A stretch of DNA of 64,000 bases from Candidatus Methanomethylophilaceae archaeon (GCA_017524805.1 JAFXUX010000006.1:389-64388), one strand, 5' to 3'. Shown: positions 1 through 59,412, counted from the stretch's first letter. Made by a program: numbers and translations. Notes: generated by a model from the letters alone, not told the origin.

Positions 1-1756
1 TCCCGATAGATGCTACCCCGCTCAGATCGATTCTAGCCAGGGACCCGCAACCGCTGAAGGCGCTGGTGCCCAGGGTGTCGGCGCCGCCGAGGTAGACACG
101 CGCAAGGGACGAGCAGCCGAAGAAGGCGTACGCACCGACGGAGGCCGCCCCGTTCAGGGTGACTGAGGCGAGGTTCCTGCAGCCGTGGAAGGCGCTGCGG
201 CCGACGTCCACCTCGGAGATGACCGAAACGATGGAACCGTTCCTGAGGAAGGCTTTGGGCGCGATAGATGTGACGGTCCATTCGAACCCGAGGTAGCTGA
301 TGGACGCGGGGACGAAGATATCGGTCGCATCATCGTCGGCCAGGCGGACCGCGGTCACTATCTTGGAATCCGCCCCGTTGTCGGTGATCCTGTACTTCAC
401 GCCGTCGTAGACGATGGTCCCCCTGAGGGGCGGGACGTACAGCTCGAGACAGGTGGCATCCACACCGGTGAACTTGTGGCCGGCCATGGCTTCAGCGCTG
501 AAATCCATCGGCCTTTCGTTCTCATCATAGAATTTGCACCAGAGGAAAGCGCCATTGCCGACTTCCGCAAAATCCGCTCCGAACACGATGTAATTGAGGC
601 CGTAGCATTCCGCGAAGGCGTAATCGCCTATGGACACTTCGCCGCCCGAGAACTTGAGGCACTCGAGCGCGCTCCCGCAGAATGCGTAGTACCCGATGGT
701 GGTGACGGTGGCGGGGATCTTCACGTAACGGAAGTAATTGCCGTCCGGGTCCTCATCCTTCAGGGCGGCCCCGGCGCCCATGAAAGCCATGGAGGCTATC
801 TCCTTGACGGTCGCCGGTATGTCGAGGCTCCGCTTCGAGGCGGGAAATTTCAGGAGCGTGGATACCTCTTTGTCGTACAGGACCCCGTCCACGGACGCGA
901 AAGTCGCGTTATCTCCGAGCACCTCTATAGACGCGAGATATGGGCTGTCAAGGGCGTTGTCCCCGATGGACGCGACCTCGGTGCCGATCGAGACCGACAC
1001 TAAGGTTTCGCATTCCGCAAAGGCCCGTTCGACGATCGCCACGGGAAAATATTCCGCGCCGCCGTGCTTGACCATCGAGGGCACGGACAGGGATTCGGGG
1101 GCCCCCACGAAGCCTGCCGCGGATACCCGGCCATCGGAGAGCAGGGCGTAGCACACGGAGCCCTCCGAGAACCCCTCGTACAGATTGCCGTCGCCGGGGC
1201 CCACGAACTCCCTGCCGCGGAGGGTTTCGGCGTCTCCATCAAGCTCCGTGTCCCCGCTGTAGAAGGATGCGTCAAATGCACCGGGCCCGAGATAATCCAG
1301 AGAATCGGAGAACCTGACGTATGCCAGATTTTCGCAGTGACTGAATGCATTATCCCCCACGCTTGTCGCCGAGGGCAGGCTCACCTCCCTCAGGAACTCG
1401 CAGCCCCAGAAGGCGTCTTCCCCCACGCTTGTCGCCGAGGGCAGGCTCACCTCCCTCAGGAACTCGCAGCCCCAGAAGACGCCTTCCCCCACGGACTCCA
1501 CCGTCCAGTCGATACCGTCGTAGCTCACCGTGCCTTCCACGCGCACGGGGCTGCCGACGTAACCTATGATATTAACGTATTGTCTATGTTCGTCAGTCAC
1601 TTCGTATACGATGTCGTCCGCGGTGAATTCTTCACCTTCCGACAGCGCCTCGGCGCCGTCCGAGAGGGAGACGGCCGCGAGAGCTATCATCGCCAATGCG
1701 ATGGCGGCGGCCGATGCCCACTGAAAGCCGCGCAGATTCAATGTGCTTGGTTCCAT
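1..1756 (-). CDS. BspA-like leucine-rich-repeat surface protein (3' end runs off the window)
   Basis: Absent from the ORF track because no stop lies inside the window. My translation from the ATG at 1756 gives MEPSTLNLRGFQWASAAAIALAMIALAAVS (signal/TM segment). Many ~22-23 aa units of the type FxGCxxLxxVxLPxSxxxIGxxAF follow. The long + strand ORFs 185..1003 and 1064..1882 are antisense shadows. Confidence 0.75.
   Translation of the reverse strand, partial: MEPSTLNLRGFQWASAAAIALAMIALAAVSLSDGAEALSEGEEFTADDIVYEVTDEHRQYVNIIGYVGSPVRVEGTVSYDGIDWTVESVGEGVFWGCEFLREVSLPSATSVGEDAFWGCEFLREVSLPSATSVGDNAFSHCENLAYVRFSDSLDYLGPGAFDASFYSGDTELDGDAETLRGREFVGPGDGNLYEGFSEGSVCYALLSDGRVSAAGFVGAPESLSVPSMVKHGGAEYFPVAIVERAFAECETLVSVSIGTEVASIGDNALDSPYLASIEVLGDNATFASVDGVLYDKEVSTLLKFPASKRSLDIPATVKEIASMAFMGAGAALKDEDPDGNYFRYVKIPATVTTIGYYAFCGSALECLKFSGGEVSIGDYAFAECYGLNYIVFGADFAEVGNGAFLWCKFYDENERPMDFSAEAMAGHKFTGVDATCLELYVPPLRGTIVYDGVKYRITDNGADSKIVTAVRLADDDATDIFVPASISYLGFEWTVTSIAPKAFLRNGSIVSVISEVDVGRSAFHGCRNLASVTLNGAASVGAYAFFGCSSLARVYLGGADTLGTSAFSGCGSLARIDLSGVASIG
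1354..1485 (-). repeat. 66-bp tandem duplication (2 copies, 2 mismatches) inside the LRR gene
   Basis: cccccacgcttgtcgccgagggcaggctcacctccctcaggaactcgcagccccagaag... occurs at 1354..1419 and again at 1420..1485. This equals one 22-aa LRR unit (EDAFWGCEFLREVSLPSATSVG) duplicated in frame. Confidence 0.9.
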
Positions 1757-2080
1757 GGGAAAAGCCACGCCTCGCGCGCACTTAATGGTAGCGATGATCC
1801 CCGGCCCGACGGATCTGCCGCCCGGCACCGAACCGCGGCGGGGGTTCAGCGGATGCTGTGTCCGTCCGTGTTAACAGGTTAAAGGAATTAACAGAATTAC
1901 GTTTGAAACATCATTCTATTATTTCAGTCCCTTCCGTGCGGGCCGCTCCCCACCGGCGTCGACCGCGGAAAGAACGCGGTTCCCCACCGAACATCGAACG
2001 GGGCCCGCATCGTCCCTGTTGGGAGCGGGAACCTTCGATCTGGCTCGGGCGGCATCAAAAACGGGCAGGCCCACCTGTTA

Positions 2081-2242
2081 CTAATGCCATTCAAAATACT
2101 TTCCCCATTTCTTACAATCAGGATGATGAGGTTCCTTCCTTGCAAAGCCCATTGACTTGCCGTCCTTCATACCGGCGGCCACATCCTTGAAAGACGACTT
2201 GCTGACGCGCTTAATTCTTCGAGTTTCCGCCCTATATGCCAT
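2081..2242 (-). CDS. small hypothetical protein (53 aa) ending in tandem stops TAG-TAA
   Basis: Below the ORF-track size cutoff. My translation is MAYRAETRRIKRVSKSSFKDVAAGMKDGKSMGFARKEPHHPDCKKWGKYFEWH followed by tag taa (plus-strand tta cta at 2078..2083). It starts 14 nt after the stop of the 107-aa ORF upstream. Confidence 0.35.
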   Translation of the reverse strand: MAYRAETRRIKRVSKSSFKDVAAGMKDGKSMGFARKEPHHPDCKKWGKYFEWH

Positions 2243-2255
2243 ATAGGACGAAGCG

Positions 2256-2579
2256 TCATCGCCAGTCTATTCTTTTATTGGGGTCCGGATACATGGGCCC
2301 GTACCCGTGGAAAAAATCCCCTCTGGCCTCGACCTCCGCAGCCTTCGCCTCGGCGGACGCTGCAGCCGCCAGAACGTCGTCCTCGGAGATCAAATATGCC
2401 TCCGCCAGGAACGCGACGGTCTCGTTCCTCTCCCTGCGGATGTACGCCCTCGCCTCCAGGAACGTGCATCCGGCGATCTCCTGCAGCAGCCACAAACGGG
2501 TACAGTACCTGACCTTCCTCTCCCTCTCCTTCTTGTTCATCGCTTCCTCCTCGGAACCATTGGTATCCGTTGCCCTCAC
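2256..2579 (-). CDS. hypothetical protein (107 aa)
   Basis: ORF-track entry with a GTG start and protein-like composition (…KVRYCTRLWLLQEIAGCTFLEARAYIRRERNETVAFLAEAYLISEDDVL…). I recognise no family. Confidence 0.45.
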   Translation of the reverse strand: MRATDTNGSEEEAMNKKERERKVRYCTRLWLLQEIAGCTFLEARAYIRRERNETVAFLAEAYLISEDDVLAAAASAEAKAAEVEARGDFFHGYGPMYPDPNKRIDWR

Positions 2580-2883
2580 AAAGATTCGGCTCGATCTTGC
2601 CGATGTATTTGGTGAGATCGACTCCGGACAGCTAAGACTTGAAGTATTCGAACCATGCCCCGTATTCGTCTAAGTCCATACCGAAAATCTCTTCATAGAA
2701 CCAGGGCCAGTCGGCTCTCAGCTAGTCGCACCCTACGAACGTCGCCTCCTCGAACGTGAGACCAACCTTCTCCTGCAGAGCCCAGAGAAGAAGAGCATAC
2801 TCCTCCTGGTAATCGAATATAAAACAGTCCGAATGCTCGGGTCTAAGAATCGGATCGTGCCTGATCTCGCCCACTATCCTCAA
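2580..2883 (-). pseudogene. fragmented or recoded coding remnant with two in-frame TAG codons
   Basis: Minus-strand frame from TTG at 2883 reads LRIVGEIRHDPILRPEHSDCFIFDYQEEYALLLWALQEKVGLTFEEATFVGCD-TAG(2722..2724)-LRADWPWFYEEIFGMDLDEYGAWFEYFKS-TAG(2632..2634)-LSGVDLTKYIGKIEPNL. It is protein-like across both TAGs. It then runs out of frame relative to ORF 2256..2579. Confidence 0.35.
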
Positions 2884-3153
2884 CTCTCCGTCCGGGCGCT
2901 CAGCTCTTTTTTTCCTTCTCCCATGGGATTCCCTCCCGACTCGCTTTCGGATATCTCCAAGGACGTCCTTGTCCCCTCTTTCTTTTTTGATTTCCTCGTG
3001 CGGCCTTAGTTCCTTTGCATCATCTTCGCTGCCATATCATCTTTTATCGATTTTCTCTTCGACATCTCGCTCATGACAGTTGATTCCGATTTCGATGGCG
3101 AGAAACCCAAAGCAGATTCTATTCAGCTAACATCATCAGAACGAAGGTTCTGA

Positions 3154-3221
3154 GTAACTATTCAGGACCTTCGCAGTAACACTATAGTAAAATATCATTA
3201 CGATAGGTCCTGAATAGTTAC
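3154..3221. repeat. perfect 17-bp inverted repeat with a 34-bp spacer
   Basis: gtaactattcaggacct at 3154..3170 is the exact reverse complement of aggtcctgaatagttac at 3205..3221. It lies about 150 bp upstream of the 3372 CDS in a lower-GC stretch. Confidence 0.85.
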
Positions 3222-3371
3222 CTTCCAACTATCTGCGACGATTTTGGAGTCTTGCTCTATGATTTCCCATACAAACACCGTTTCAACTGCGCGATGCCCA
3301 GATTCTAACCTCGATGGAAACAGCGACCACTGGTTAAGTAGGCGCCACAGATTGGTTGCTGCGGGATTCAT

Positions 3372-4349
3372 ATGAGCAAAAAGAGATCGAAAAGAACAAC
3401 ATACAATGGGCATCCAGAAGGCGAATCTGCCGACCCTATAGTGAAACTGCTGAAAGAGTTCATACCCTGCTCGCGTAAGTATTTCGCAGGCATAGGATGC
3501 GAGCCATTCGTGAATGACGACGGGGACTATCAGATACTCCGGAAATTCTCTGGTGAAACGGATATCATATCCTCCAACAAAGAAGGAAGAATCAAAATGA
3601 CGGTCACTTACATCGTATCTCCGGGCAGGAATCTGCGTCCGGAGACGATCGCCGCCCGCAAAGGGATAAAACTGTTCGAGAGAAACCCGGACGAATTCCT
3701 CTCCGAAAGCCCGGACAGAATCCGGAGATATTGCTCCGTAGCAGTGGTCATAGATCCACCCGCAGAGAACAGATGGACCGTCTCATCGTACAACATAAGA
3801 TGCATGCGCAAAGACAAGGAATACTTCGGCGAGAATGGAGAGGAATTCATGCATATCATAGTCCTGAACCTGGGCCCAAGCAAAGACAGCAATATGAAGG
3901 ACGGCGCAGGCCTGTTGGGCGTGATATTCGACAAGGATCTCACATTGAAGGAGACCGTATACGCCTTGGAAAAAAGGTTCATGCTGTCCGCCGATCTGAA
4001 CATAATGGAAGAGATCGCCACCTTACACGGATACCTGAGAGGGTATGCCGATGGAAAGAGCATGGCAGAGCCTGCTTACGATTTCGGGAAGGCAGTGGAG
4101 AACATACAGAGAGGGGAATTCATTGCTCTGGCCGAGATGGTCATGCGCGTCCATGACGAATGCGGAGTGCCGATCGAGGATCCCATCAGAGTATTGAAAC
4201 TGAATGAAGAAGAACGTGAAAAGGTCCTCGCGGAAGTGGAGAAAATCCTGAAAGCCAGGGAGTGCTTTGCCAGGATGCCGAAGAAGACCGATGTCCCCGA
4301 TGCGAACCGCGAAAATCAGGAGTCTTCAGCGGACGAACCTGCCGCTTGA
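3372..4349 (+). CDS. hypothetical protein (325 aa) with weak resemblance to PD-(D/E)XK Rpn/TIGR01784-type putative nucleases
   Basis: Clean ORF in a lower-GC accessory stretch. The segment VAVVIDPPAENRWTVSSYNIRCMRKDKEYFGENGEEFMHIIVLNLG and the helical C-terminus recall that family only loosely. Confidence 0.5.
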   Translation: MSKKRSKRTTYNGHPEGESADPIVKLLKEFIPCSRKYFAGIGCEPFVNDDGDYQILRKFSGETDIISSNKEGRIKMTVTYIVSPGRNLRPETIAARKGIKLFERNPDEFLSESPDRIRRYCSVAVVIDPPAENRWTVSSYNIRCMRKDKEYFGENGEEFMHIIVLNLGPSKDSNMKDGAGLLGVIFDKDLTLKETVYALEKRFMLSADLNIMEEIATLHGYLRGYADGKSMAEPAYDFGKAVENIQRGEFIALAEMVMRVHDECGVPIEDPIRVLKLNEEEREKVLAEVEKILKARECFARMPKKTDVPDANRENQESSADEPAA

Positions 4350-4510: not shown

Positions 4511-6433
4511 TCATGACAAGCGTTCCAATTCCTCTGCGGCCTCCTCATTGCCGTTCTCTGCGGATTCCGAATACCACCTCTTCGCTTCCTCCAGGGATTT
4601 CGGGACTCCCTTCCCTTGCTCGAAGAAGCGCCCTATATGAAGCTGAGCCAGCGCATTGCCACCTTCCGCTGCCTTCAGATACCATTCCGCCGCCTTCTCA
4701 TAGGATTTGTCCGCTGCCATCCCGTTCTCGTACATATAACCGAGATTGTTTTGAGCCGAGAGATGGCCTTGGTCTGCCGCTTCGGAGAACCATCTGAAGG
4801 CTTCCGCATCGGATTTCGGCACACCCTTCCCATCCACGAACATCAGACCGAGACAGAATTGCGAATGCGGATCTCCGAGCTCAGCCCCTTTCCTATACCA
4901 TTCCGCCGCCTTGATATCGGAATGGCCCGGCCACTCCTCATCCTCATAGATGAGACCCAGTTCGTTGGAGGCGTCCAGCATCCTGCCTTCGAACGCTTTC
5001 TCCAGCAGAGGAATCGCCCTCTCATAGGATTGCTCGACGCCTTCCCCGAGGCGGAGAAGCCTCCCCAGATTGTAGCAGGACCTGATGTGCCCCTGGGATA
5101 CGGCCTTCTCGTAGAACTCGGCAGCTTTCTCGCAGGATTGCTCGACGCCCTCGCCCTCCTCATACATAGAACCCAGATTGTTCTGGCAGTATGGGTCTCC
5201 GAGCTCAGCCCCTTTCCGATACCATTCTGCAGCCCTCTCGTAAGATTTCTCGATGCCTTCCCCGTTGAAAAGCGAGACGGCCAGATTGAAGCAGGCATCC
5301 GCATCCCCGCCTTCTGCGGCCCTCTCATACCACTTGACAGCCTCCTCGCAGGACTTTTCGACGCCCTCGCCCCTCTCGTACATCCCGCCCAGAAGATACT
5401 GGGAACGCGGATCGCCTTGATCGGCGGCCTTGGAATACAATTCGATGGCTTTTGCGTAGGACCTCTCCACGCCTTCCCCATCCCTGTACATGGAAGCGAG
5501 ATTGCACTGCGCCCTGATATTGCCCTGATCGGCTGCCCTGGAAAACCAGATCAGCGCATCATCGTAGGACTGATCCACGCCCAGGCCGTGCTGATACATC
5601 ATTCCGACGTTGTTCGCCGCGTCTGCATCCCCATCATCAGCGGCCATTTCGAACAGCTCGAAAGCCTTCTCGTAAGATTTCTCCGTCCCGAGCCCGCTGA
5701 AATATAAGAGCCCCAGGTTGTTCATAGCCCGGGGGTATTTCGTGGCCGCCGCTTCTGAGTACAGCTCGATAGCTCTCTCGTAGGACTGCTCCACGCCCAG
5801 GCCGTGGTCATAAAGATAGCCAAGATCGCACTGCGCCACGTCCAGCCCCATTTCGGCGGCTTTCCCGTAGTATTCGGCGGCCTTCGCATAGGATTGTTCG
5901 GTGCCCTTCCCGTTCTCGTAAAGATTGGCCAAGCAGCGGTATCCCATGGCGTTGCCTCTGTCTCCGGCTTTCTTATACAGCTCCAGCGCTTTCCGGAAGG
6001 ACTCCTCCGTCCCTTCCTTCTCATGCCTCAATGCCATCATCTACAGACAGAACGCGTTCCCATACTCTGCGCCCAAAGCGTAGAGGTCCATGCCGTCGTA
6101 AAACCCGTCCCCGACAATCCCCAATGTCTGGCAGAGATTTCCGGCGCGTTCCATGGCGAACCCGTCGCCCGCATCGGCAGCCAGACCGTACCACCTTATA
6201 GCTTCGATCAGACTGGGACGGACCCCCAAGCCATGCTCGAATGCCAGCCCCATCATGCATTGCGCGTCGCGGTCCCCATCTCCGGACGCCTCGGCCAAAA
6301 AATCCAACGTTTCCTCGTCCGTGCCGAAGAAACCTGACCATTCGCCCATCCTGGCCGCCAAACGGGACGACATCTCCGAATCCTTCCCGCCGCCTTCCAG
6401 CAGCCACCCCACCACCGCGGAAACATCTTTCAT
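4511..6433 (-). CDS. Sel1-like repeat (SLR/TPR-like) protein, single reading frame interrupted by one TAG at 6041..6043
   Basis: ORFs 6041..6433 (130 aa) and 4511..6040 (509 aa) are contiguous and in the same frame. Both consist of 36-aa units of the type AxxWYxKAAxxGxxxAQxxLGxMYxxGxGVExS. The junction reads GNAFCL-TAG-MMALRHEKEGTEES. Confidence 0.75.
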
Positions 6434-6568
6434 GAGGGACGGATGGCAAAAAACGTATTTCGCCCTTGCTTCCCGCCTTCTGCGGATCGGATGGGCATCG
6501 CAACGATCGCTGCCGCTCTGGCTTCCGCTGACTTGGACCGATCCGATTACGACGGCCGATCGGGCGCC

Positions 6569-7135
6569 TCAATGATGGCCTTTCTCATAGGGCCAAACCG
6601 GCTCCGGCTGCTCTCCGGACAGATATTTCCTGAGCGTATCGGCCTCAACGACGCTGCATATGACCTCGGCAGCCTTGTTCCCCTCTTGGTTGTATGGGAT
6701 CGTCGCGTCTTTTCCCAGATACGGGCATATGCCCCTCTCGCCGGCCCCATAATAGGTGGTAATCACGCAGAACTCCGTCAGCATCCCGGCGAATAGGACG
6801 CAGTCGATGCCGTTCTTCGACAGGATATCCTCCAGATCGGTCTCCTTGAAGCAATTCATATGCTCCTTGCGGACGATTATATCTGAATCCTCCACTTCCA
6901 ACCCCTGAAGCCATTCGTCGCCGTCGTCGCCTTCGTAGCCGCAATGGGACGGGCCGACGAATCCGACGAATATCACCGGGGCGCCATATTTGCGGAAAAT
7001 CCTTGCGTATTCGTTGATCGCCTCTACGGCGGGTTCCATGCGCTCCTTCCAATCCGCAACCGGGAGCGAGAATTTGCGCTGGGGGTCGATGACTATCATC
7101 GCCATCTTCTTGCCCCATATGGATTCGGCTTTCAT
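6569..7135 (-). CDS. isochorismatase-family cysteine hydrolase
   Basis: MAMIVIDPQRKF…, NCFKETDLEDILSKNGIDCVLFAGMLTEFCVITT are typical isochorismatase/nicotinamidase-fold motifs. Confidence 0.85.
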   Translation of the reverse strand: MKAESIWGKKMAMIVIDPQRKFSLPVADWKERMEPAVEAINEYARIFRKYGAPVIFVGFVGPSHCGYEGDDGDEWLQGLEVEDSDIIVRKEHMNCFKETDLEDILSKNGIDCVLFAGMLTEFCVITTYYGAGERGICPYLGKDATIPYNQEGNKAAEVICSVVEADTLRKYLSGEQPEPVWPYEKGHH

Positions 7136-8475
7136 ATCTGCACCTCCATAGAAATCGGCTCATACATCTCTTCCAAAGCGACCAGAACGACATCCTCCCT
7201 CGAATTTGCCATTTCCTTGAGATCATCCGCGAATCCGCACCCAGAGAACAGCATCAAAATGAGCTTATTGTCTATCTTAATCTTTTTGGAGCCGCTCTGA
7301 AGCCTCTTGAAATCGCGCATATCCATGGGGTCCCCGTGGAACCTGGACAGGGTGCATATGTTCACCATGCGCCCATCTGCGTCCCTCGCGATGACGGCGT
7401 AATCGGCATCCGGCCCGGAAGGACCTCCGCCGCGAACCTTCCCGACAGATATGGTGTTGTAGTGTATTTTGACGTATTCTTTGGTGATGGTCCTGAATAT
7501 ATCGGAAAGATAAGGCTCCAAAGCATCCAAAGCCGCGACGAATGCCTTGTCCTCGGAGAAGAAATCGTCTCCGAGCCTGCACTTCGTTATCACGGTGAAG
7601 TAGAATCTCAGAATATTGCTGGAGAAAACGCACACCCAATTCCTTTTGTCGAAATCGGAGAATTCGCGGGATACCATCCCTCTGTTCTCCATCTCAGCGA
7701 TCGCCTTCTGGCACTGGCCTGCTGACAGCCCGGACCTTGACTGGATCTCTTTCGGGGATTCCGCCCCGGAGGCCATCGCGTAGAGTACCCTGATGCAATC
7801 CCCCTTCGGGGCCACATCGGACATGGTGGATTCGACTTCCAGAGAAAACACAGACATCTTGCCTATGAACTGATCCCTTATTGCATCCTCAGGATCGCCG
7901 GCCAGAAGATGCTGGTATGCGGGCGTCCCTCCGACGATCGCGTAAGCCTTGAGCTGCTGGATCGGCCCGAACTCCGGATGGAATCCCGCACATTCCAGAT
8001 AGTTCATGGGCCTGATCTCTTTCGGATTCGTTATCCTGCCGAAGATGGAGCTGTCGGTATCGCACGCGATAAGGAAGATCTTGGTTTCCTTTATGTCGCG
8101 GGAGAGGAATCTGGAGAGAGCGCTGTACATGTGCGGGAACTGGGCCATAAGCTCGGAATAATTGTCGAGGATGACCACAGTCCTTTTCGTGCATATCTGT
8201 TTGAGGCGGTCGAACAGCTCATCCTCATCTTCGATATGCTCTTTCTCGCCGGAGCATCTCCCGACAGCCTCCTCGATATTGCGCAGCAGATCCGATTTTG
8301 GGCCGTTGAAGCCGGAAATATATATGTGGCGCTTGTACTCGCAGAATTTCTGAAGCAAGGCGGTCTTCCCCAGACGCTTCCTTCCATATATGGCGCAGCT
8401 CTGAGGGGCTGCTTTGTACAGGCTCTCCAAATAATCCAGATAATCGCTCCGACCGACGAATCCGTCCATGCCCAT
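7132..8475 (-). CDS. archaeal-type AAA ATPase (Arch_ATPase/DUF234-like)
   Basis: N-terminus FVGRSDYLDYLESLY…AIYGRKRLGKTALL (Walker A), 447 aa. It makes a 4-nt overlap with the downstream gene. Confidence 0.8.
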   Translation of the reverse strand: MGMDGFVGRSDYLDYLESLYKAAPQSCAIYGRKRLGKTALLQKFCEYKRHIYISGFNGPKSDLLRNIEEAVGRCSGEKEHIEDEDELFDRLKQICTKRTVVILDNYSELMAQFPHMYSALSRFLSRDIKETKIFLIACDTDSSIFGRITNPKEIRPMNYLECAGFHPEFGPIQQLKAYAIVGGTPAYQHLLAGDPEDAIRDQFIGKMSVFSLEVESTMSDVAPKGDCIRVLYAMASGAESPKEIQSRSGLSAGQCQKAIAEMENRGMVSREFSDFDKRNWVCVFSSNILRFYFTVITKCRLGDDFFSEDKAFVAALDALEPYLSDIFRTITKEYVKIHYNTISVGKVRGGGPSGPDADYAVIARDADGRMVNICTLSRFHGDPMDMRDFKRLQSGSKKIKIDNKLILMLFSGCGFADDLKEMANSREDVVLVALEEMYEPISMEVQI

Positions 8476-24551: not shown

Positions 24552-25202
24552 ATGGACGGCATATTCTTGAGAGCCGAAAAGTTCGCCGAGGGAGTTTTCG
24601 CAGGTGATTCCGGCGGACATGACATCTACCATACGCTCCGGGTGCACTCTGTGGCCAGAAGGATATGCGCGGAAGAGGGCGGGAACGAGAGGATAGTCCG
24701 CCTTGCCTCCCTCCTGCACGATGTGGACGACCCCAAACTGTTCGGGAACGCTGGATATGCCAACGCCATGCGCTTCATGGAATCCGAGGGGATCCCGGCG
24801 GAAGAGCGGGAAAAGATAATCCGGATAATCTCCCAGATATCTTTCAGAGGCTCGGGCTCATCGGTGCCTGACACCTTGGAAGGGAAGATAGTCCAGGATG
24901 CCGACAGAATGGATGCCATCGGAGCCATTGGCATCGCCAGAGCCTTCGCATACGGCGGAAGCAAAGGGCGCCCGATGCACATCCCGAGCGAAAAGCCGAG
25001 GGAATCCATGACCGAAGAGGAATACAGATCGGAAGGCACGACTCTGAACCATTTCCATGAGAAGCTCCTGAAGCTGAAAGGGCTGATGAACACCGAATCT
25101 GCGAGGAAAATGGCGGAAAGGCGGCACAGCTACATGGAAGAATTCTTGGACGAATTCCTCAGGGAATGGGACGGAAAAATGCGATGGCCACTCTTATCGT
25201 AG
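24552..25202 (+). CDS. HD-domain phosphohydrolase. It is the only family-assigned gene here that ends in TAG.
   Basis: GGHDIYHTLRV…LLHDVDDPK…QDADRMDAIGAIGIARAF. The stop at 25200..25202 is tag. Confidence 0.8.
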   Translation: MDGIFLRAEKFAEGVFAGDSGGHDIYHTLRVHSVARRICAEEGGNERIVRLASLLHDVDDPKLFGNAGYANAMRFMESEGIPAEEREKIIRIISQISFRGSGSSVPDTLEGKIVQDADRMDAIGAIGIARAFAYGGSKGRPMHIPSEKPRESMTEEEYRSEGTTLNHFHEKLLKLKGLMNTESARKMAERRHSYMEEFLDEFLREWDGKMRWPLLS

Positions 25203-25308
25203 AATTATTACGTTATTCGTATTATCAATTATAATTAGCATACGAATCTGTCTTAATACCTGTATTTTTACGAAAAATATCTTAATATACCATCCCATTT
25301 GGGGCCTC

Positions 25309-38511: not shown

Positions 38512-40321
38512 ATTAACGAGTTCCCAACGAGCCGTATAGTCAGTTGACAGGATTCTTTTTAGGCCTCCCCCTAGGCCTCTTAGGCTTCTCTTCGGTGCCC
38601 GTTTTCTTAGGTCTTCCACGCTTCTTCGGAGCGACCGGTTCGGGGCCTTTGGACAATCCCAGCTTCTCCATGGTCTCATGGACATTGGGAAGCGTATGCA
38701 CCCAAGCGCCGTCCGAACGGGACGGCGCCTCGGGTCCATCCACCCTCCGCCATGCGGATGACAGGTCGTCCATGAGGTCCCTGTACGAGGCCTCCTCCAG
38801 GAGCTTCGTCTCGGTGAACCGCCTGATTATCCTGCATGTGATTATCGTCGCGATGCTGTTGATGAACTCGCTGCCCCGCACGGAGAAATCGCCCTGGACC
38901 CTGATGTCGTCCAGGCCCTCGTCATTCTTGTAATAGTTGAAGACCAGCTCCAGGAGCCATCTGTCGTCGTAGCATCTGTACGCCGTCTCGCAGTCCATAT
39001 CGAGATCGGATTCGAACACGATCGTCCCGAAGTTCCTGTCCTTCTTCGAATATTTCTGATAATCGAAGGACTTCTGGGTGCTCCTCCTGCCCAGGTAGGT
39101 CATCTCCTCCAGGGATGCCTTGTACGGGTCCTTGAAGGCATAGAGGAACATGCCGCCCTGTATGCGGCGCTTCCTGTAGAGCACCTTATGCTCGGTGTTC
39201 TCCAGTATTCCCTCGAAATCCAGCATGTCGTTGTTCGTTATGCGGATGTCGTTGCGCTTTATAGGAGTGAGGAAATGGAGCTGGGGGCGGTCCCCCAGCT
39301 CCTCCCTTATCCTGCTGGGAGGGAACCCCTTGTCGGCTATGATGATGCCTTTCCGGATGTCGTTGTCGCGGATGAAATCCGAGTATGCGACGGCGTCTAT
39401 GCAGTTACCCGGGAACACCTCGGCACATATGGGCTCCATCCTCTCGACGTCATAGGCATAGATGACTGAAACGTCCTTGGTGCCCTTCACCCTCGACTTG
39501 TATGAAAAATCCGAAAGGTCGTTGACGGTGCTGTTATCAGTCTTCAGTGTCCCGTCGATGGCCACATGATGCGTCTCGGCCACTGCCTTGATGCGTCTGG
39601 AATAGAACTCCTTGCGCTTGGGCCCGTTCATGCCCAGCAGCTGATGGAGCCCGCATACGCTGTTCTTGGAGATCGCCAGGTCGGGGTAGAATACGCTGGC
39701 GAACGTCCTCCTGTAATGGGTGGACAGGCGATTATCGGTCACATGCGGTATCGCCACCCGCAGGGCGGCGATGGCCATGATCTGATATCCCGCATCGATA
39801 CCGTAGACGTCCAGGAGGTCGTTAAGGATGTCATCGGATACCGACCTTACCAATGCCAGTGCACCGAACGACAGTTCCTGTGGCTCAGATCCGGAGAGAT
39901 CCGATACGGGAACGAACCTCCCGTTGTGGATGTATCCGATCACCTCTCCGTTGACAGGCTGAGGGTTGTGGCCGGGAACGTAGATGACCTTCTTGCGCGA
40001 CCTCACGGCGTACCTCTTCCTTCCGTCGCCGCCATTGTCGACGACGACGGTGTTGCTCGGTCTCGGGACCTTCCTGATTTCCTCCGGCACTCCCATAAAA
40101 TCCCCCTAAATATAGTATTTATTCTATATTTCAGTACTATATATTAACATTTTTGCCTGTCATTATTCAAAGATTACGGACCCCGTCCATCACTTCGATT
40201 GCCGGAAGAATCCTGAAAAGGCCGACAGGATCGAACAATAAACGTTACTTCAGCCCAAAACAGGCCCGAAATACACTGATTCTCAGAGGGATATAGTACG
40301 GCTCGTTGGGAACTCGTTAAT
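38512..40321 (-). mobile_element. intact insertion sequence, IS4/IS1634-type (~1.81 kb)
   Basis: 25-bp perfect terminal inverted repeats (38512..38536 attaacgagttcccaacgagccgta, 40297..40321 reverse complement) bracket a single DDE transposase ORF. Confidence 0.88.
38540..40096 (-). CDS. DDE transposase (IS4 family, IS1634-like) with two C-terminal AT-hooks
   Basis: D (HVAIDGT), D (IIADKGF), and Y-2-R-3-E-6-K signature YDDRWLLELVFNYYK. The C-terminus is KKRGRPKKTGTEEKPKRPRGRPKKNP. Confidence 0.9.
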   Translation of the reverse strand: MGVPEEIRKVPRPSNTVVVDNGGDGRKRYAVRSRKKVIYVPGHNPQPVNGEVIGYIHNGRFVPVSDLSGSEPQELSFGALALVRSVSDDILNDLLDVYGIDAGYQIMAIAALRVAIPHVTDNRLSTHYRRTFASVFYPDLAISKNSVCGLHQLLGMNGPKRKEFYSRRIKAVAETHHVAIDGTLKTDNSTVNDLSDFSYKSRVKGTKDVSVIYAYDVERMEPICAEVFPGNCIDAVAYSDFIRDNDIRKGIIIADKGFPPSRIREELGDRPQLHFLTPIKRNDIRITNNDMLDFEGILENTEHKVLYRKRRIQGGMFLYAFKDPYKASLEEMTYLGRRSTQKSFDYQKYSKKDRNFGTIVFESDLDMDCETAYRCYDDRWLLELVFNYYKNDEGLDDIRVQGDFSVRGSEFINSIATIITCRIIRRFTETKLLEEASYRDLMDDLSSAWRRVDGPEAPSRSDGAWVHTLPNVHETMEKLGLSKGPEPVAPKKRGRPKKTGTEEKPKRPRGRPKKNPVN

Positions 40322-44721: not shown

Positions 44722-44804
44722 GAGATGCCTGATGCGATAGTGATTAATTTGGGTTTCCGACGCCGGAAAAACAACCCGATTCTAGCGACTAGGTTTATTA
44801 TTCT

Positions 44805-46349
44805 ATGACTGAATGGCATGGCGGTCGTTCTCGGATGGATGCGGAAATCAAAAAAGCTATGCCCGGGCTGTGGCTGCTGTCATTCAGCACCTTTGTGGTA
44901 TGCGTGCCTGCGGCGTTCACGCAGATTCTCTCGCTGGATCTCATGATGGATTTGAACTCGTTCCCCACCGAGGGGTACGCATGGACGTTCCCGGCTTTCG
45001 TGGGCGGAGAATGCGCCTCCATGGCCCTTTTCGCCGGCCTGATGGACAGCGTGGGCCGCAAGAAACCGTATCTGATCGGTTCGGTGCTGTTCATACTGAG
45101 TTCGATAGCCTGCGCCATGAGCTCCGATATGTCCGAGTTCATTCTGTTCCGCGTGATAGAAGGGTTCGGGGCCGGGATCATAATCATCGCGTGCATAGCG
45201 CAGATTTACTACGACGTGCCGAACCCAAAGCTCCGCTACATCGCCAACGGGATAATGTCCCTGGGATTCGGGCTGGGGATGCTGGTGGGGGTCTTCCTTG
45301 GGAAAGCGATAATAGACGGCATGGGCTGGGAGCTCACGTTCTGGGCGATGGCGGCGCTCCAAGCTATCGTCACCTATCCATCGCTGCTGACCCTGTCCAA
45401 AGGCGAGCCCAGCAGCATGAAACCGGACTACCCAGGCGCCATCATTCTCATGTTCCTCTCTGGGTTCTTCGTGTTCTTCCTTCAGAAGCTGTATCTCGAC
45501 TGGGGCCCGGTCAGCCCGGAAGGCCTCATGGGTACGGCGCTCATCGTCATGCTGATCGTCGCGCTGGCAGTCGCTGAATCTCTGAATCCGAATTCCATCG
45601 CACACCGCAAGCTGGACGACAAAAAGCTCACCGCCGCGTGCCTGATATTCATAATAATTCTGGGGGCGCTAGACATGGCCGCCGTGGGGTCGATGATAAA
45701 GATCTCGTTCTTCACATATCAGATGTCCATCCTCGAAGTTGCCCCCTATTTCACGATAATGGTTTTGGGGGCCGCGACCACCGCCATAACCATCTCCAAG
45801 AAGATCGACAAGACGGGGCATCTCGTCTGGCTCCTGCTGAGCGCCGTGCTCACGCCCATAGCGCTGCTGTCGATGCTGCTGGTCAAAGCGGACGACCCCT
45901 CATACATATTCGCCATCCATCTGTTCCTGCTCGGCCTCGCCATAGGGTGTCTGGTATCCATGCTTAATGCAACGATCCAGAACCGCACCGACGAAAGCAA
46001 CAACAGCGCCATCATGGGATTCGCCATACTCATCCGCACGGCGGCCCTTTGGCTGGGATACAACTTCTATCAATTCATCACGGACCAATACATGCTGAAC
46101 AAGCTGAGCCCGTACGTCGAGCATTGGAACGAGATCTTCCCGTTCGATATCCCCGCGGACAGCATGCTGGCCAACCTTCTGATCACCCCGATGAAAGAGC
46201 TACTGAAGCTATTGCCCGGACTGACGGACGCCATCGCGGATATCTACGCCGAAGGGATGGCTCAGGCGCTCATGCTGGGAGCCGTCATATTCGTGGCCGT
46301 TGCGATCCCCACCGCGGCCATCCTCGTAGGCAGGAGGAAAACATTATGA
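44805..46349 (+). CDS. MFS transporter (DHA2-like)
   Basis: 514 aa, hydrophobic, GLMDSVGRKKPYL motif. The stop makes an ATGA overlap with the start of the giant ORF. Confidence 0.8.
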   Translation: MTEWHGGRSRMDAEIKKAMPGLWLLSFSTFVVCVPAAFTQILSLDLMMDLNSFPTEGYAWTFPAFVGGECASMALFAGLMDSVGRKKPYLIGSVLFILSSIACAMSSDMSEFILFRVIEGFGAGIIIIACIAQIYYDVPNPKLRYIANGIMSLGFGLGMLVGVFLGKAIIDGMGWELTFWAMAALQAIVTYPSLLTLSKGEPSSMKPDYPGAIILMFLSGFFVFFLQKLYLDWGPVSPEGLMGTALIVMLIVALAVAESLNPNSIAHRKLDDKKLTAACLIFIIILGALDMAAVGSMIKISFFTYQMSILEVAPYFTIMVLGAATTAITISKKIDKTGHLVWLLLSAVLTPIALLSMLLVKADDPSYIFAIHLFLLGLAIGCLVSMLNATIQNRTDESNNSAIMGFAILIRTAALWLGYNFYQFITDQYMLNKLSPYVEHWNEIFPFDIPADSMLANLLITPMKELLKLLPGLTDAIADIYAEGMAQALMLGAVIFVAVAIPTAAILVGRRKTL

Positions 46350-49300
46350 AAGCAATCCACGCGGCCTTCCTGGCGATGCTCGCCATAACCATTCTGGCCT
46401 CTGCCTTGGCATACGATCATATCGACGCGGAAACGCTGCCGACCGGCGACGTCGTGATTTCCGGCGACGTCTATCTCGACGGCGACGTGCGCATCGAAAG
46501 CGGCTCCGACGTCATCATCATGGACGGGGCCAGCATCGACATCTCGGATCATACCGTGACTATCGGCCAGGGATCCAAAGCCCTTGTGCTGGGGTCGGCG
46601 TCAGTCTCGAGCTCGGGCGGCAGCATCATACTGGAAAGCGGGGTTCCGTTATCCATACTCGACATCCCCCTGTTCCGCATGGAAGGGGACATAACAGTCA
46701 CCTTCGATGGGACCATATCGCTGAGCCTGGATCCTCTGCTGGGAACGCTGAGATTGGGATTCCAGCCGTCCGGCTCCGACAAATCCATCCATCTGTCGCA
46801 AGGCAGCAGAACCTTGGCGCTGGAGAAACCGGGCCTGACAGCGAAGATGGGCATCGGAAACGTGGACATAACGGTCGGATTCTCTAAGATCGTCCTTACC
46901 GAGGAGAAGAGAGACGGCAATTCCTTGGTGAGCAGGACCGCGACGACCATAACATCAAGCAACCCGGAAGATTCCTTGGAGTTCGTCCTCTACCTGATAG
47001 ACGAAGGATACGGCGACTTCTATCTCAAAGACATCAACATCAGGAGCGTGGAGATGTCCACATACCACGCCGAAAGCAGGATCACCACATCCTGGTCGCT
47101 GTCCGGATTCCATCACCTGAGCGTCTCCCTGAGCGGAAGCGGCATAATTTCCGTGAGTTCGGCGATAGACAAAGCGACATTCGAAAGGAGCAGAGACGGC
47201 ATCGTCGAAAGCAGAACAGTTCTGAACTCAATAAACTGGGATGTCGACCTGGACCTGATCAGACTCTTCCAGATGCTGGAAGCCGTCATATTCGGGGGAG
47301 ACAAGATCGAAGTCTCTGACATGATCAAGGATGTGACGGTCGCCATAAAGTCCATTTCGATAGACGACCGCGAGAAAGACATCAGAAAGAATCTGACCGG
47401 CTTCCGCTTCGAACTGCAGAGGGACGCTCCCGCGGAATTCCGCAACGTCATCGTATGGAAGGACGGGGACACATCCTATAGGCTGGCTTTCTCCGGGGTC
47501 ATCCTCAACTCTATCGGCATAGGAACCGATTTCATGATGGACCTGGACGTCTCGGTGGCGGATGCCAGATTGGATGTCGTGCCTTCCCAAGGACCAAAGA
47601 CGGCGGCGACTGCGACGGACCTGGATTTTGAGATAAACGATCTGGATCTGCCCGGGCTTCTCTCTGTCCTATCCAGAACGGGAGAGATCGATATCCAGCA
47701 GATTCTGGACCATTGCCTGCGCTTGCGCCTGTCCGCATCCTCGATGGCATACTCCAAGGACGGCCAAACGATCGCCGCCCGCGGCATCAGCATGTCCCTC
47801 GAAAAGGATGTCAGAGGGCGCAGCACATTTGCTCTCGGTTTCAGCAGCATAAAAGGCTCCGCCATTCTGGAAGACGGCGGATACCTCAGCATGGACATCG
47901 GGAAGACGGCGGCATCCCTAACCACCGACGGCTCCCTCGCAGAATACATAGACGCGCTCAGATCTGTCCCGCACATATCCGGAGACTCGGACCTTGCCAT
48001 ACAGATAAAAACGGAATCGGTAAGAATCGACTTCGAAGATGCCGGCGGATCAGCCTCGGTCTCGAGCAGACCAGTAACCGCGAACCCTTCCGCCATCTCT
48101 CTGGATCTGTCGGTCAGGCATACCGCGTACAAGGACATAACCGGCCTGAGCGGCAGCTTTTTGGCCGTCGGGCACGAGATCACTGCGAAAGAGCACGATG
48201 CCGAGAAAGGCTTGGACCTGGTCGCCATCATAACCGATCCCGACCTCACCCTGAACGGAGCAGACCTCGGTTCTCTGGCCGCGATCCGCGAGGAAACAGG
48301 GAAGATAAGCGTGCTGGACATCGCCGACAACATCGACAGCGCCGAACTCCTCGCCCGCTACGCAGATGTGAGAGCCGATGGCAGCCGCATCAAACTCGCA
48401 TCCCCTGAAATCAGAGCCGGAGCGATCAGAAGCTATTCGGTCGGCATAAGCGCGGATTCTATGTCCGCTGACGCCTCTGCGGCGGGGCTCTCCATTAAAT
48501 CTGGATCGGCCTCGCTTTCATTTTCGTCCAGCATCTCGTTCAGCACCCTTCAGAAGGCTTTCTCCGACGGATTCAGATTCGATTCCGACGTCTCCATCTC
48601 GTTCGAAGGGACCGTGACCGACGCCGAAGCTAAATACGCCGGCGATTCCCTCACCGCAGTTATATCCAACAGCGGGTCGCCTACGTTGGAGATCGATCTG
48701 TCTTATGAGCGCTCGGAAAGATGGGGCATATCCGCCCTTACTGCCGAACTGTATGCCAATGGATACGGGATCGAAGCCGATGGAAGCGACAAAAACGGAG
48801 AAAGATTCGCCGTATCCCTGCAGGATCCGGAAGCCGCCGTTAAGGATCTGGATGTCGATGCGCTCTCCGCCGCGAAAGAGGCCGGAGAGATAGATGTCTT
48901 CGACGTTCTGGACAATACCGGTAGGGCCGACATCGACGCATCATCCGCGAGCATGAATTACAGAGGCTATGAGATAACCGTCAGATCGTTCGGCATCGAT
49001 ACGATCTCTTCGAACGTGTGCAGCGCATCCCTAGCGGCCAGCTCTCTGTCCGCTCTCGCGCCTGCTAAGACAGGAAACGTGAGCATCAAATCGGGGGCTT
49101 TGGATTTGAGAGTCTCATCCAACATGTCCTTCGCCGGGATCCGCGACGCCCTCCTCGAAGGCAAAGAATTCGAGCCGGGAGCCAAGATCGCGGCGGAAGC
49201 CAGCTTTGAAAGCCTCAACCTCAGCTATTCCGCCGACTTTGCCATTTCCATATCGGGCACGAGCGAAAAACCGACCTTGACTTTAGACGCCACCGCCGCC

Positions 49301-53881: not shown

Positions 53882-55147
53882 TTGATCGACCGCCGCGATA
53901 ACGGTCTGATCAAAGTCATAACAGGGGTCCGCCGCTGCGGAAAAACGTACCTCGTCGAGATACTGTTCAGAGATTGGCTGATTGAAAATGGCGTGGATCC
54001 CAAAAACATCATATTCATATCGCTTGAAACGGGCCTTAATGCCCATCTCAGAAATCCCCTTACGCTTTCAGAGCACATTCACGACGCGATTGGCGGCTCC
54101 GACTCCAGAAAATACGTGATTATAGACGAGATACAGCTTTGCGCCAGCGTGGACAACCCATACCTTCCCCCAGAATCCCGCACTATAGAGAACATGATGA
54201 CGTTCTATGACGTCGTCTTAGGTCTGAGAGAAAAATGCGACATTTATGTCACCGGAAGCAATTCAAAAATGCTTTCCAAAGATGTCCTCTCCAGTTTCAG
54301 GGGCAGAACGGACGAAATACCCATAATTCCCCTGTCATTCTCTGAATTCCACTCTGCCCTCAGAGGGGACGTCAGGTCGGATTGGATGGAATGCCTCTAC
54401 CATGGAGGAATGCCTGGAACACTGCTATATCATGATGCCCCGTCCAAAAACAGGTACCTATCAAGTCTGTTCAATGAGATCTACCTCAAAGATATTCAGG
54501 AACGCTATGGAATCCATGGCATCGACGATCTGTCAGCGATCGTTGATGTTCTCGCCTCATCATCCGGAGGGTTGGTTAACCCGCAGAAAATCGCTGACTC
54601 CTTCCGGGACAGGAGCGTCAGCAGGAACACCGTGGCCAATTATATAGAGCATCTAGAGGACTCTTTCCTGATATCCGGATCCATGCGCTTCGATATCAGA
54701 GGGAGGAGGCACATAAACGGCCTAAAAAAGTATTATTTCACGGACGTGGGGCTGATGAACGCCAGACTCAATTTCAGGGAGATGTCGCGTGCAAAGCTCA
54801 TCGAAACCGTGGTGCATAACGAATTCCTGCTTCGTGGATGCAACGTAGATGTCCGAAGAATAGATGTCAGAAGAAGAAACGAAGAGGGAAAATCTGCGAT
54901 CATATCTCTGGAAATAGATTTCGTCGTCAACAGATCGTTCGATAGGGCTTACATACAAGCGGCCATGGGAGTGGATGACCCAGGAAAAATGGAGCAAGAG
55001 ACCAGATCGCTGAAGGCCATCAAGGATGGCTTCGCAAAGATCCTGCTGATAGATTCCGACGTCCCAGAGCATGTCACCGAGGATGGCATCAGGGTGATGT
55101 CCATCATAGATTTCCTGCTCGACGAGGGCTCCCTGAGATTCAACTGA
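53882..55147 (+). CDS. AAA ATPase with DUF4143-type C-terminus (COG1373-like), N-terminus interrupted by TAA
   Basis: VITGVRRCGKTYL (Walker A), VIIDEIQ (Walker B). The frame is continuous with ATG 53849 (MRIERPIHLQ) except for a taa at 53879..53881. A TTG follows directly at 53882. Confidence 0.78.
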   Translation: MIDRRDNGLIKVITGVRRCGKTYLVEILFRDWLIENGVDPKNIIFISLETGLNAHLRNPLTLSEHIHDAIGGSDSRKYVIIDEIQLCASVDNPYLPPESRTIENMMTFYDVVLGLREKCDIYVTGSNSKMLSKDVLSSFRGRTDEIPIIPLSFSEFHSALRGDVRSDWMECLYHGGMPGTLLYHDAPSKNRYLSSLFNEIYLKDIQERYGIHGIDDLSAIVDVLASSSGGLVNPQKIADSFRDRSVSRNTVANYIEHLEDSFLISGSMRFDIRGRRHINGLKKYYFTDVGLMNARLNFREMSRAKLIETVVHNEFLLRGCNVDVRRIDVRRRNEEGKSAIISLEIDFVVNRSFDRAYIQAAMGVDDPGKMEQETRSLKAIKDGFAKILLIDSDVPEHVTEDGIRVMSIIDFLLDEGSLRFN

Positions 55148-55720: not shown

Positions 55721-58039
<2,319 letters not shown>

Positions 58040-58123: not shown

Positions 58124-58174
58124 TTTAACGCGATAAAACTTTTTGATTTTGAAAGTTTTATAGCGTTAAATTGC
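58124..58174 (+). repeat. 51-bp hairpin-forming element, copy 1 (upstream of the ATPase gene)
   Basis: tttaacgcgataaaactttttgattttgaaagttttatagcgttaaattgc. The 18-nt arms 58125..58142 and 58152..58169 pair 17/18 around a 9-nt loop. Confidence 0.9.
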
Positions 58175-58185
58175 ATTTTAGAACT

Positions 58186-59412
58186 ATGCTTGAGCTCAGG
58201 AGAGAGAAATACCTTTCCAGGATCCGCCCCTTTTACAAAGATACGGACATCATCAAAGTGCTGACCGGGGCCCGCAGATGCGGCAAATCCACCATTTTGA
58301 GGCAGATCATCGACGAGCTCCGCGAAGAAGGCGTAGATGGCCGTTCATTGGTATACCTAGATCTGGACAGCAAAAAATATCTCAGCGTCAGAACGTCGGA
58401 TGCTCTGGAAAAGCTGATCGATTCGGGATTCGGGGATTGCCAAAGCGGCAGATACCTCTTCATCGATGAGATCCAAAATGTCAGAGACTTCGAGCCGCTG
58501 ATCAATGCGTATCGCAACGACGGAGTCTCCGTGTTCATAACTGGCTCCAATTCTTATCTGCTAAGCGGAGAGCTGGTGACCAAACTCACGGGAAGATACG
58601 TGGAATTCAGGATTTCCACGTTCTCTCTGAGCGAAGTCAGAGAATTCTATCGGATAAACGGCATGGCTTTCACCCCGTCAGAAGCGTTTCAAGACTATCT
58701 TCTGAACGGAGGATATCCCAAGAGCTTCGAATATGCCGATCAAGACAGCAAATCGCTGTACATCCGCTCAGTAATCGATGAGACGATAGAGAAGGACATC
58801 CTAAGGAGCAAAAAGGTCAGAAACAGGGCTCTGATGGGAAAACTTCTCGATTATATTCTTTCGACGCCGGGCGCGGAGATATCTTCCACATCCATAGCCG
58901 ATTATCTGCGCTCCGAACGCATGATGACGACCCCGAACACTGTGAACGGCTATCTGGATCTGATATTCTCCAGCAAACTGGCGGACAAGTGCGTTCGCTT
59001 CGATATCTTCGGAAAGAAAGCCCTGAAAACCCATTACAAATCATACGTCGCCGACATATCCCTCCACACATCTTATCCCAATGTCAGGCGCGACCTGAAA
59101 ATGGGGCATATCCTGGAGAATATAGTCTTCAACGAGCTCAGATCCAGGGGATACGACGTCCAAGTCGGAAAACTCAGGGACATAGAGGTAGATTTCGTCG
59201 TCTCGAACAGGAAGGACATCGCCTATATCCAAGTGACATACCTGATGGCATCTCCTGAGACGGAAGAAAGGGAAGAACGCCCTCTCCTGAAGATAGAAGA
59301 CAACTATCCAAAATACATCATATCCATGGATCCGATAGCCATCGACCGCAAGGGAATCAAAAGATTGCGTCTGGTGGAAGATTTCTTGTTGGGAGATGGA
59401 TTCAGATTTTAA
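58186..59412 (+). CDS. AAA ATPase with DUF4143-type C-terminus (COG1373-like), paralog of 53882..55147
   Basis: MLELRREKYLSRIRPFYKDTDIIKVLTGARRCGKST…LFIDEIQ. ATG 58186 is preferred over the TTG at 58171, which lies in the repeat. The stop TAA 59410..59412 lies inside repeat copy 2. Confidence 0.8.
   Translation: MLELRREKYLSRIRPFYKDTDIIKVLTGARRCGKSTILRQIIDELREEGVDGRSLVYLDLDSKKYLSVRTSDALEKLIDSGFGDCQSGRYLFIDEIQNVRDFEPLINAYRNDGVSVFITGSNSYLLSGELVTKLTGRYVEFRISTFSLSEVREFYRINGMAFTPSEAFQDYLLNGGYPKSFEYADQDSKSLYIRSVIDETIEKDILRSKKVRNRALMGKLLDYILSTPGAEISSTSIADYLRSERMMTTPNTVNGYLDLIFSSKLADKCVRFDIFGKKALKTHYKSYVADISLHTSYPNVRRDLKMGHILENIVFNELRSRGYDVQVGKLRDIEVDFVVSNRKDIAYIQVTYLMASPETEEREERPLLKIEDNYPKYIISMDPIAIDRKGIKRLRLVEDFLLGDGFRF

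Follow-up and report, generated by a model that had tools for sequence, protein, structure and literature searches.

The Sel1-repeat locus of this Candidatus Methanomethylophilaceae archaeon was found to be, with a probability of roughly 0.8, a single gene coding for a 640-residue Sel1 protein with pyrrolysine (Pyl) at position 131, where the reading frame carries an internal TAG. The locus lies in the 64 kb stretch of DNA that was analysed here as a whole (hereafter the window), and its features are collected in Table 1. According to the mechanism that we propose, the amber codon would be decoded by pyrrolysyl-tRNA(CUA), TAG having been largely or entirely dropped as a stop codon in this lineage (Genetic Code 34), and the ribosome would insert pyrrolysine at codon 131 before going on to the terminal TGA. 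The TAG would have arisen in a degenerate repeat unit of low conservation, where it took the place of a Leu or Ile codon, and at least two species-level lineages would have kept it since, probably as a change that is neutral or nearly so. The product would be a Sel1-like repeat (alpha-solenoid) protein of the archaeon. An earlier sequence-only reading of the window had already taken the locus to be one 640-codon gene in which TAG behaves as a sense codon, and this is supported by homologues bearing a sense codon at the same place, by a relative that has kept the TAG, by purifying selection and by other TAG codons of the same family that are not followed by an ATG.

Table 1. Coordinates of the Sel1-repeat gene, its parts and the other TAG-containing genes of the window
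Feature	Position	Strand	Description
Complete Sel1-repeat gene	4511..6433	minus	ATG 6433..6431; 640 sense codons including the TAG; TGA stop 4513..4511
In-frame TAG, codon 131	6041..6043	minus	putative pyrrolysine codon
N-terminal 130 codons	6044..6433	minus	family-specific region, a single canonical Sel1 unit at residues 56-90, then degenerate units as far as the TAG
C-terminal 509 codons	4511..6040	minus	rest of the junction unit (degenerate), followed by 13 canonical Sel1 units
HD-domain gene	24552..25202		read-through of the terminal TAG adds 17 codons in an AT-rich spacer, no overlap with the next gene
Kae1/TsaD gene, 327 codons	57056..58039	minus	internal TAG 57685..57683 directly after the HxxxH metal-binding motif

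The ORF coordinates bear out the layout that had been claimed, namely an ORF ending in TAG and an adjoining in-frame ORF opening with ATG: the TAG (6043..6041) is followed directly by an ATG (6040..6038), with a second ATG next, and 130 codons, the TAG and 509 codons add up to 640 in a single frame. In public assemblies, gene callers split the locus into a 130-aa and a 509-aa (or 508-aa) gene. The same TAG recurs in about 10 contigs of independent ENA and Logan metagenome assemblies, each differing by at most 2 nt in 1923, and an assembly error as its source was therefore ruled out; a sequencing error was given little weight. These contigs share 99.9% identity or more with the window and are uninformative on conservation.

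Such a layout could also be read as that of two polypeptides, in which the TAG would end a 130-aa protein and re-initiation at the ATG would give a 509-aa Sel1 protein, the two perhaps reassembling non-covalently or occurring as a mixture set by the supply of Pyl-tRNA. We consider this unlikely. It is favoured by the two-gene annotation and by the ATG itself, which comes straight after the TAG in each of the three sequences of this clade that carry the TAG (the window and its relatives L014 and L011, described below). Over the 25 nt that precede the junction ATG, no Shine-Dalgarno-like (SD-like) motif was found, which would count slightly against re-initiation; this is a weak test, such a motif being present in just 10 of 29 window genes. 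Further evidence on both sides of this reading is given with the results that follow.

Both parts of the locus were compared with the Pfam Sel1 profile (PF08238), for which the gathering cut-off is 30.7 bits and the unit comprises about 36 residues arranged as helix A, a loop and helix B. The 130-aa part contains one repeat (34.8 bits, E = 2e-8) and the 509-aa part contains 13 (393.6 bits, E = 1e-121). Both therefore lie above the cut-off and, with a period of 36, belong to the Sel1-like repeats, in agreement with what had been claimed of the two parts. A repeat profile made solely from the units downstream of the junction was then run on the fused sequence, and it placed one unit at residue 56 and a series of others, spaced by a period of 36, from residue 163 through 199 and 235 to 596. 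Three periods counted from residue 56 lead to residue 164 (56 + 3 × 36), and as the first unit of the array lies at 163, passage over the TAG preserves the register within one residue. The 36-residue period thus carries across the TAG when the fused translation is submitted to repeat prediction, a check that the sequence-only reading had proposed, and the difference of a single residue in length that it had noted was confirmed, the junction unit having 36 residues (with the TAG counted as one) vs 37 in the next.

The same profile recovered the helix-B half of a degenerate unit at residues 140-156, and helix A of this unit is therefore expected at about residues 127-139, with the TAG (131) within it. 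The claimed placement of the TAG inside helix A of a repeat, as opposed to between domains, is plausible but no more than moderately supported: the unit is degenerate, the profile aligns just its helix B and the pLDDT of the model described below is under 50 at this place. The unit that bears the TAG, located between the N-terminal region and the canonical array, is the least well defined of all. Separation of the chain at this point would cut a repeat unit and leave the helix B at 140-156 without its helix A, which argues against two polypeptides.

We modelled P0003, an uninterrupted homologue with a Leu at the junction (residue 130), using AlphaFold with a 30-sequence alignment. The predicted structure is a continuous all-helical solenoid with a mean pLDDT of 88. 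In this model, the Leu at the junction forms part of a short helix (126-133), after which come a loop of 7 residues and a long helix; the predicted arrangement has the A-loop-B pattern of the canonical units. Residues 124-139 form the sole internal segment with a pLDDT below 50. A bulky residue would, judging from the model, be most easily tolerated at this degenerate, lowest-confidence unit that bears the TAG; the same placement of the junction in what is predicted to be the least well-defined unit of the solenoid would also suit a protein made in two pieces.

Relatives of the gene were sought with a junction-spanning 233-aa query, which returned P0002 and P0003, and by scans of species-representative genomes and of metagenomes, which gave L014, L015, L016, L094 and L095; L012 and P0003 are one family member. 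Within the metagenome scan, L094 and L095 were the only new family members and the other 78 loci were generic bacterial Sel1 proteins. P0002 and P0003 are single proteins that cover 98-100% of the junction query with 46-47% identity (E = 8e-75 and 6e-74), and because each spans both parts, the continuity of the two parts in one gene is not due to chance. Homologues at 38-51% identity are uninterrupted at the TAG column of the window and have Leu or Ile there, the family alignment contains no gaps around the junction, and the full-length relatives, with or without TAG, have a common start (MKDVSAVV / MDDMPAVV) and a common C-terminus (..SESAENGNEEAAEELERLS). L014 (Tb.RUG.20) is full length, with 81% amino acid and about 84% nucleotide identity to the window, and L011 is partial and 97% identical to L014 at the nucleotide level. 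Comparison with orthologues, which had been suggested as a check, hence gave TAG (L014, L011) or a Leu/Ile codon at this column, within a continuous ORF in place of two spaced genes. Although TAG and ATG adjoin as they do in a coupled gene pair, the relatives hold one continuous ORF, and these single uninterrupted proteins speak against the production of two polypeptides.

Three TAG columns were identified in the family. At column 1, that of the window, TAG is found in the window, L014 and L011, and the other sequences have a Leu codon (CTG in L015, CTC in L012 and CTG in L016) or Ile (L094). At column 2, TAG is found in L016 and L095, and AGG (Arg) in L012 and L015. At column 3, TAG is found in L012 and L016 and putatively in P0002 (NCBI GCA_016648615.1), as judged from its close similarity to L012, to which it is nearly identical, and from a gene called in the same frame 6 nt downstream; the window and L014 have CAG (Gln) there. 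In columns 2 and 3, a single substitution separates each TAG from the sense codon that it replaces, neither TAG is followed by an ATG, and past these TAGs the frame stays open for about 200 clean Sel1 codons up to the conserved C-terminus. One Sel1 family has acquired TAG on three independent occasions, each at a tolerant position of the repeat scaffold, and two of the TAGs have persisted across species-level divergence. At column 1, the TAG was kept in L014 and L011 while neighbouring codons changed (CTG to CTT; ATG to ACG). The sharing of a TAG by two lineages at about 81% amino acid identity is not statistically significant alone, as an average site would do likewise, and it therefore provides no evidence of a specific role for Pyl.

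Selection was examined by dN/dS analysis according to Nei-Gojobori. For L012 vs L016, dN/dS was 0.30 over the 339 codons before their common TAG (dS 0.49) and 0.086 over the 200 codons after it (dS 0.44). This low value downstream of a TAG that lacks an ATG implies that read-through must operate in the Sel1 family; the strong conservation past TAGs without an adjacent start is also difficult to reconcile with re-initiation. For the window vs L014, dN/dS was 0.16 over the 129 codons upstream of the TAG (dS 0.61) and 0.14 over the 509 codons downstream (dS 0.80), and zero further stops or frameshifts were observed downstream of the TAG in either sequence. Selection has thus maintained both halves of the window's gene since the origin of the TAG, as it has the segment past the ATG-less TAG in the sister lineage, and the upstream 130-aa part, the decay of which had been named as an observation that would count against a single gene, is not decaying. 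Purifying selection on both halves would likewise be expected of a split gene.

The use of TAG was then surveyed over the whole window, which has a GC content of 55% and contains archaeal hallmarks (a family B DNA polymerase and a fused inositol-monophosphatase/NAD kinase). A simple gene caller based on codon usage predicted 56 ORFs, of which 43 end in TGA, 7 in TAA and 6 in TAG. Half of the six TAG-ending ORFs scored poorly and are probably not genes, which leaves about 50 confident genes with three credible TAGs: one internal in the Sel1 gene, one internal in the Kae1/TsaD gene and one terminal in the HD-domain gene (Table 1). The few TAG stops of the window are thus mostly internal and entail no long out-of-frame overlap, as expected within this window for Code 34, and within the window TAG is essentially never a clear terminator.

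The Kae1/TsaD gene corresponds to the second, independent case of a sense-like TAG that had been claimed in the window, and this case proved to be real. The Pfam TsaD profile matches at positions 11-98 before the TAG and at 104-264 after it, and the fused protein aligns over residues 1-326 with PDB 2ivn (E = 7e-122) and 3eno, the TAG occupying a single column. The best 120 Kae1 relatives (77-90% identity) are all uninterrupted and have T, L, Q, M or V at the TAG site, and the window's Kae1 shares 79% identity with the Ca. Methanoplasma termitum protein. This essential enzyme therefore needs read-through of TAG in the window's organism. Kae1 could not function as two pieces severed within the catalytic core, which further weighs against the two-polypeptide reading.

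Published work on recoded archaea bears on the two-polypeptide reading from both directions. The release factor aRF1 persists in these organisms and could compete for the codon, but in M. alvi proteomics Pyl was seen in every case in which the peptide concerned could be detected (Kivenson et al. 2024, bioRxiv 10.1101/2024.09.30.615893). Read-through of the Sel1 TAG would presumably be efficient, and some termination alongside it is possible because aRF1 is still present in Code 34 genomes (Kivenson et al.).

A related view, which we regard as very unlikely, takes the TAG to be a selected feature and not a mere neutral change, namely a Pyl-dependent switch in a putative host-association Sel1 family. 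Abundant Pyl-tRNA, driven by methylamines, would give the 640-aa protein and scarce Pyl-tRNA would give separate 130-aa and 509-aa products via re-initiation, a scheme to which we attach the same very low likelihood. The view draws on the three TAG acquisitions, two of them retained, and on the ATG conserved after the TAG in the window's clade. If it were true, a putative host-interaction protein would be coupled to the energy substrate of the methanogen.

With regard to the identity of the inserted residue, we consider it more doubtful still that the TAG is read through otherwise than as Pyl, whether by a near-cognate or suppressor tRNA giving Gln, Tyr, Lys or Leu or by another reassignment. 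tRNA-Pyl was not found in the 64 kb window using Rfam and ARAGORN, which gave only tRNA-Glu, tRNA-Leu and tRNA-Val, and neither pyl genes nor methylamine methyltransferases were found by Pfam among 23 window proteins; the absence of pyl genes and tRNA-Pyl from the window, together with the Leu, Ile, Gln or Arg residues that sister sequences hold at the TAG columns, counts in favour of such a reading. On the other hand, members of the Methanomassiliicoccales characteristically carry pylTSBCD (PMC4153887; PMC10804542), the three TAG columns replace Leu, Arg and Gln and so indicate no single canonical residue, and in de novo-assisted proteomic searches of M. alvi, TAG positions showed no other, standard amino acid (Kivenson et al. 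2024, bioRxiv 10.1101/2024.09.30.615893). Pyrrolysine is thus the putative residue at codon 131, and the genome would be expected to carry pylTSBCD, as suggested by the family-level taxon, the internal TAGs and the literature. A PYLIS-like stem-loop was also sought: the 104 nt from the TAG fold with -24.7 kcal/mol vs -21.95 +/- 2.8 for shuffled sequences (z = -0.98), and this segment thus shows no PYLIS-like structure.

The weakest reading, a recent pseudogene in which a nonsense mutation of a Leu codon has left the remainder decaying or accidentally open, hardly deserves credence: the TAG does stand in for the Leu/Ile codon of homologues, the Sel1 family is large and possibly redundant (28 copies in Ca. 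M. alvus; PMC4153887) and mobile-element genes lie nearby (an integrase and a resolvase in L001), but the reading is refuted by the selection analysis of the window against L014, which shares the TAG at dS of about 0.6-0.8 and, at about 84% nucleotide identity, is not a same-strain contaminant, and each of the 13 downstream repeats has remained a strong match to the Sel1 profile.

The single gene decoded with Pyl was compared with known systems. The family Methanomethylophilaceae belongs to the order Methanomassiliicoccales, of which not every member is recoded, 11% of stops in M. luminyensis being TAG (PMC4153887). Borrel et al. (2014), whose work foreshadowed Code 34, reported that just 1.6% of genes end in TAG in Ca. 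M. alvus, which has 28 Sel1 proteins, and they predicted 16 Pyl proteins beyond the methylamine methyltransferases, including the Sel-1 domain protein AGI86303.1 (PMC4153887). Kivenson et al. (2024) detected Pyl in M. alvi in 12 of the 15 predicted Pyl proteins that were expressed, and inferred Code 34 for Methanomethylophilus, Methanogranum, Methanoplasma and some Methanosarcinales; in their study PYLIS was not needed, and most non-methyltransferase Pyl sites were neutral-looking singletons within a genome or genus (bioRxiv 10.1101/2024.09.30.615893).

The Sel1 gene resembles Category 1 of Code 34 as defined by Kivenson et al. in several respects: it comes from the same family, TAG is near-absent as a terminator in the window, and homology exceeds 30% on both sides of the TAG with an extension of more than 15 aa, P0002 and P0003 covering both sides and read-through adding 509 aa. 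The lack of a PYLIS-like structure and the replacement of an ordinary sense codon at a variable site also fit, the latter being consistent with a neutral origin. It differs in that Pyl was demonstrated by proteomics in M. alvi, whereas we infer Pyl and the pyl genes from sequence, and in that the usual sites are singletons, whereas one Sel1 family here has three TAG columns, two of which are each common to sequences of about 81% amino acid identity. AGI86303.1 of Ca. Methanomethylophilus alvus is likewise a Sel1-class protein of the archaeal family with a TAG-interrupted CDS that was fused in silico (PMC4153887); this comparison was made from its published description, and that protein has 389 aa vs 640 aa here.

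The pyrrolysine-dependent methyltransferases MtmB, MtbB and MttB also have a UAG read by tRNA-Pyl, as is proposed for the Sel1 gene, but their Pyl is universally conserved and catalytic, whereas the Sel1 site is mostly Leu or Ile and lies in a degenerate repeat. As most homologues have Leu or Ile at this site and the repeat is degenerate, no specific function of Pyl is indicated in the Sel1 protein. A closer parallel lies outside methylamine metabolism. Pyl occurs in the tRNA-His guanylyltransferase (Thg1) of Methanosarcina acetivorans, a case to which Kivenson et al. refer (their ref. 39) and which was interpreted as neutral evolution, reportedly by Heinemann et al. in PNAS in 2009. Thg1 has in common with the Sel1 gene an in-frame TAG outside methylamine metabolism, a full-length product, and a non-critical site with canonical residues in homologues. 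It belongs to another methanogen order and has another fold, and in Thg1 both read-through and the dispensability of Pyl are experimental, unlike in the Sel1 protein, where they are proposed.

The mechanism, Pyl decoding in Methanomethylophilaceae, and the lineage have been described before, and no new question is opened by this case. It extends the catalogue of non-methyltransferase Pyl proteins, and the three-column TAG family with two persisting TAGs, together with the Kae1 Pyl codon in the window, goes slightly beyond the published picture. Owing to the use of the standard code by gene callers, public assemblies mis-annotate the Sel1 and Kae1 genes as two fragments each, and gene calling in Methanomethylophilaceae MAGs should treat TAG as a sense codon. 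Overall, the case fits the published view that, once TAG was freed from its role as a stop, Pyl codons would spread by near-neutral drift and, especially on reaching essential genes such as Kae1, would lock in the code.

The surroundings of the Sel1-repeat gene look variable and rich in mobile elements. The features on which this impression rests are the first four entries of the table, which also collects the others discussed here; the resolvase and phage-integrase genes were seen in L001, a contig from another assembly that carries a near-identical locus and reaches past the window start.

Features discussed in this part, with positions in the window unless another contig is named
Feature	Position	Strand	Remarks
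LRR_5 surface-type protein	within 1..4349		cut by window start
325-aa protein	3372..4349		without Pfam match
Resolvase and phage-integrase genes	L001 12454..13530		just outside window start
DDE transposase	38540..40096
Archaeal ATPase paralogues (n=3)	53882..55147, 58171..59412, 7132..8475	+, +, -	AAA_14 + DUF4143, or ATPase_2
1967-aa ORF	46049..51952	+	good coding score
HD-domain gene including read-through extension	24552..25256	+	apparent terminal TAG at 25200..25202
Kae1/TsaD gene	57056..58039	-	internal TAG at 57685..57683
ORF upstream of Sel1 orthologue, and Sel1 orthologue (L015)	4654..5880 and 5986..8262		JAFYAH010000037.1, Methanomethylophilaceae RGIG6908
P0005	L013 663..1199		Logan SRR12529273

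At L015, a homologous locus with an uninterrupted Sel1 orthologue, a TAG-ending ORF was observed directly upstream of that orthologue and in the same frame, the two being separated by 35 open codons. With TAG decoded as sense, the upstream ORF and the Sel1 gene would be joined in one fused frame; the arrangement could be due to chance, or could represent a Category 3 in-frame fusion in the classification of Kivenson et al. 2024. The protein P0005, from the short contig L013, matched the L015 orthologue up to residue ~155 and continued as a nonsense tail, which is most likely a frameshift arising from an assembly error and not a real variant.

An "ATPase domain" protein is one of the putative pyrrolysine (Pyl) proteins of M. 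alvus (Borrel et al., PMC4153887). The archaeal ATPase paralogues of the window are dispersed across it, and none of the three copies carries an internal TAG. The 1967-aa ORF gave no Pfam match at E <= 1e-5, and the ~1.2 kb upstream of it (44800..46050) held poorly scoring ORFs only.

The HD-domain gene was the only confident gene of the window apparently ending in TAG. Read-through would add 17 codons, among them a second TAG at 25236, before stopping at TAA 25254..25256 inside an AT-rich spacer and short of the next gene (25309). On the sequence, termination and read-through are both compatible with the first TAG.

In the Kae1/TsaD gene, the TAG immediately follows the HxxxH metal-binding motif, and the fused product aligned along its whole length with the structures PDB 2ivn and 3eno. 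All of its best 120 relatives (120/120) were uninterrupted, with T, L, Q, M or V at the TAG site and Gln in the closest of them (90% identity); judged from these alignments, the TAG therefore looks like a species-specific Pyl codon. Kae1/TsaD is universally essential, and in public gene calls this copy would be expected to appear as two fragments.
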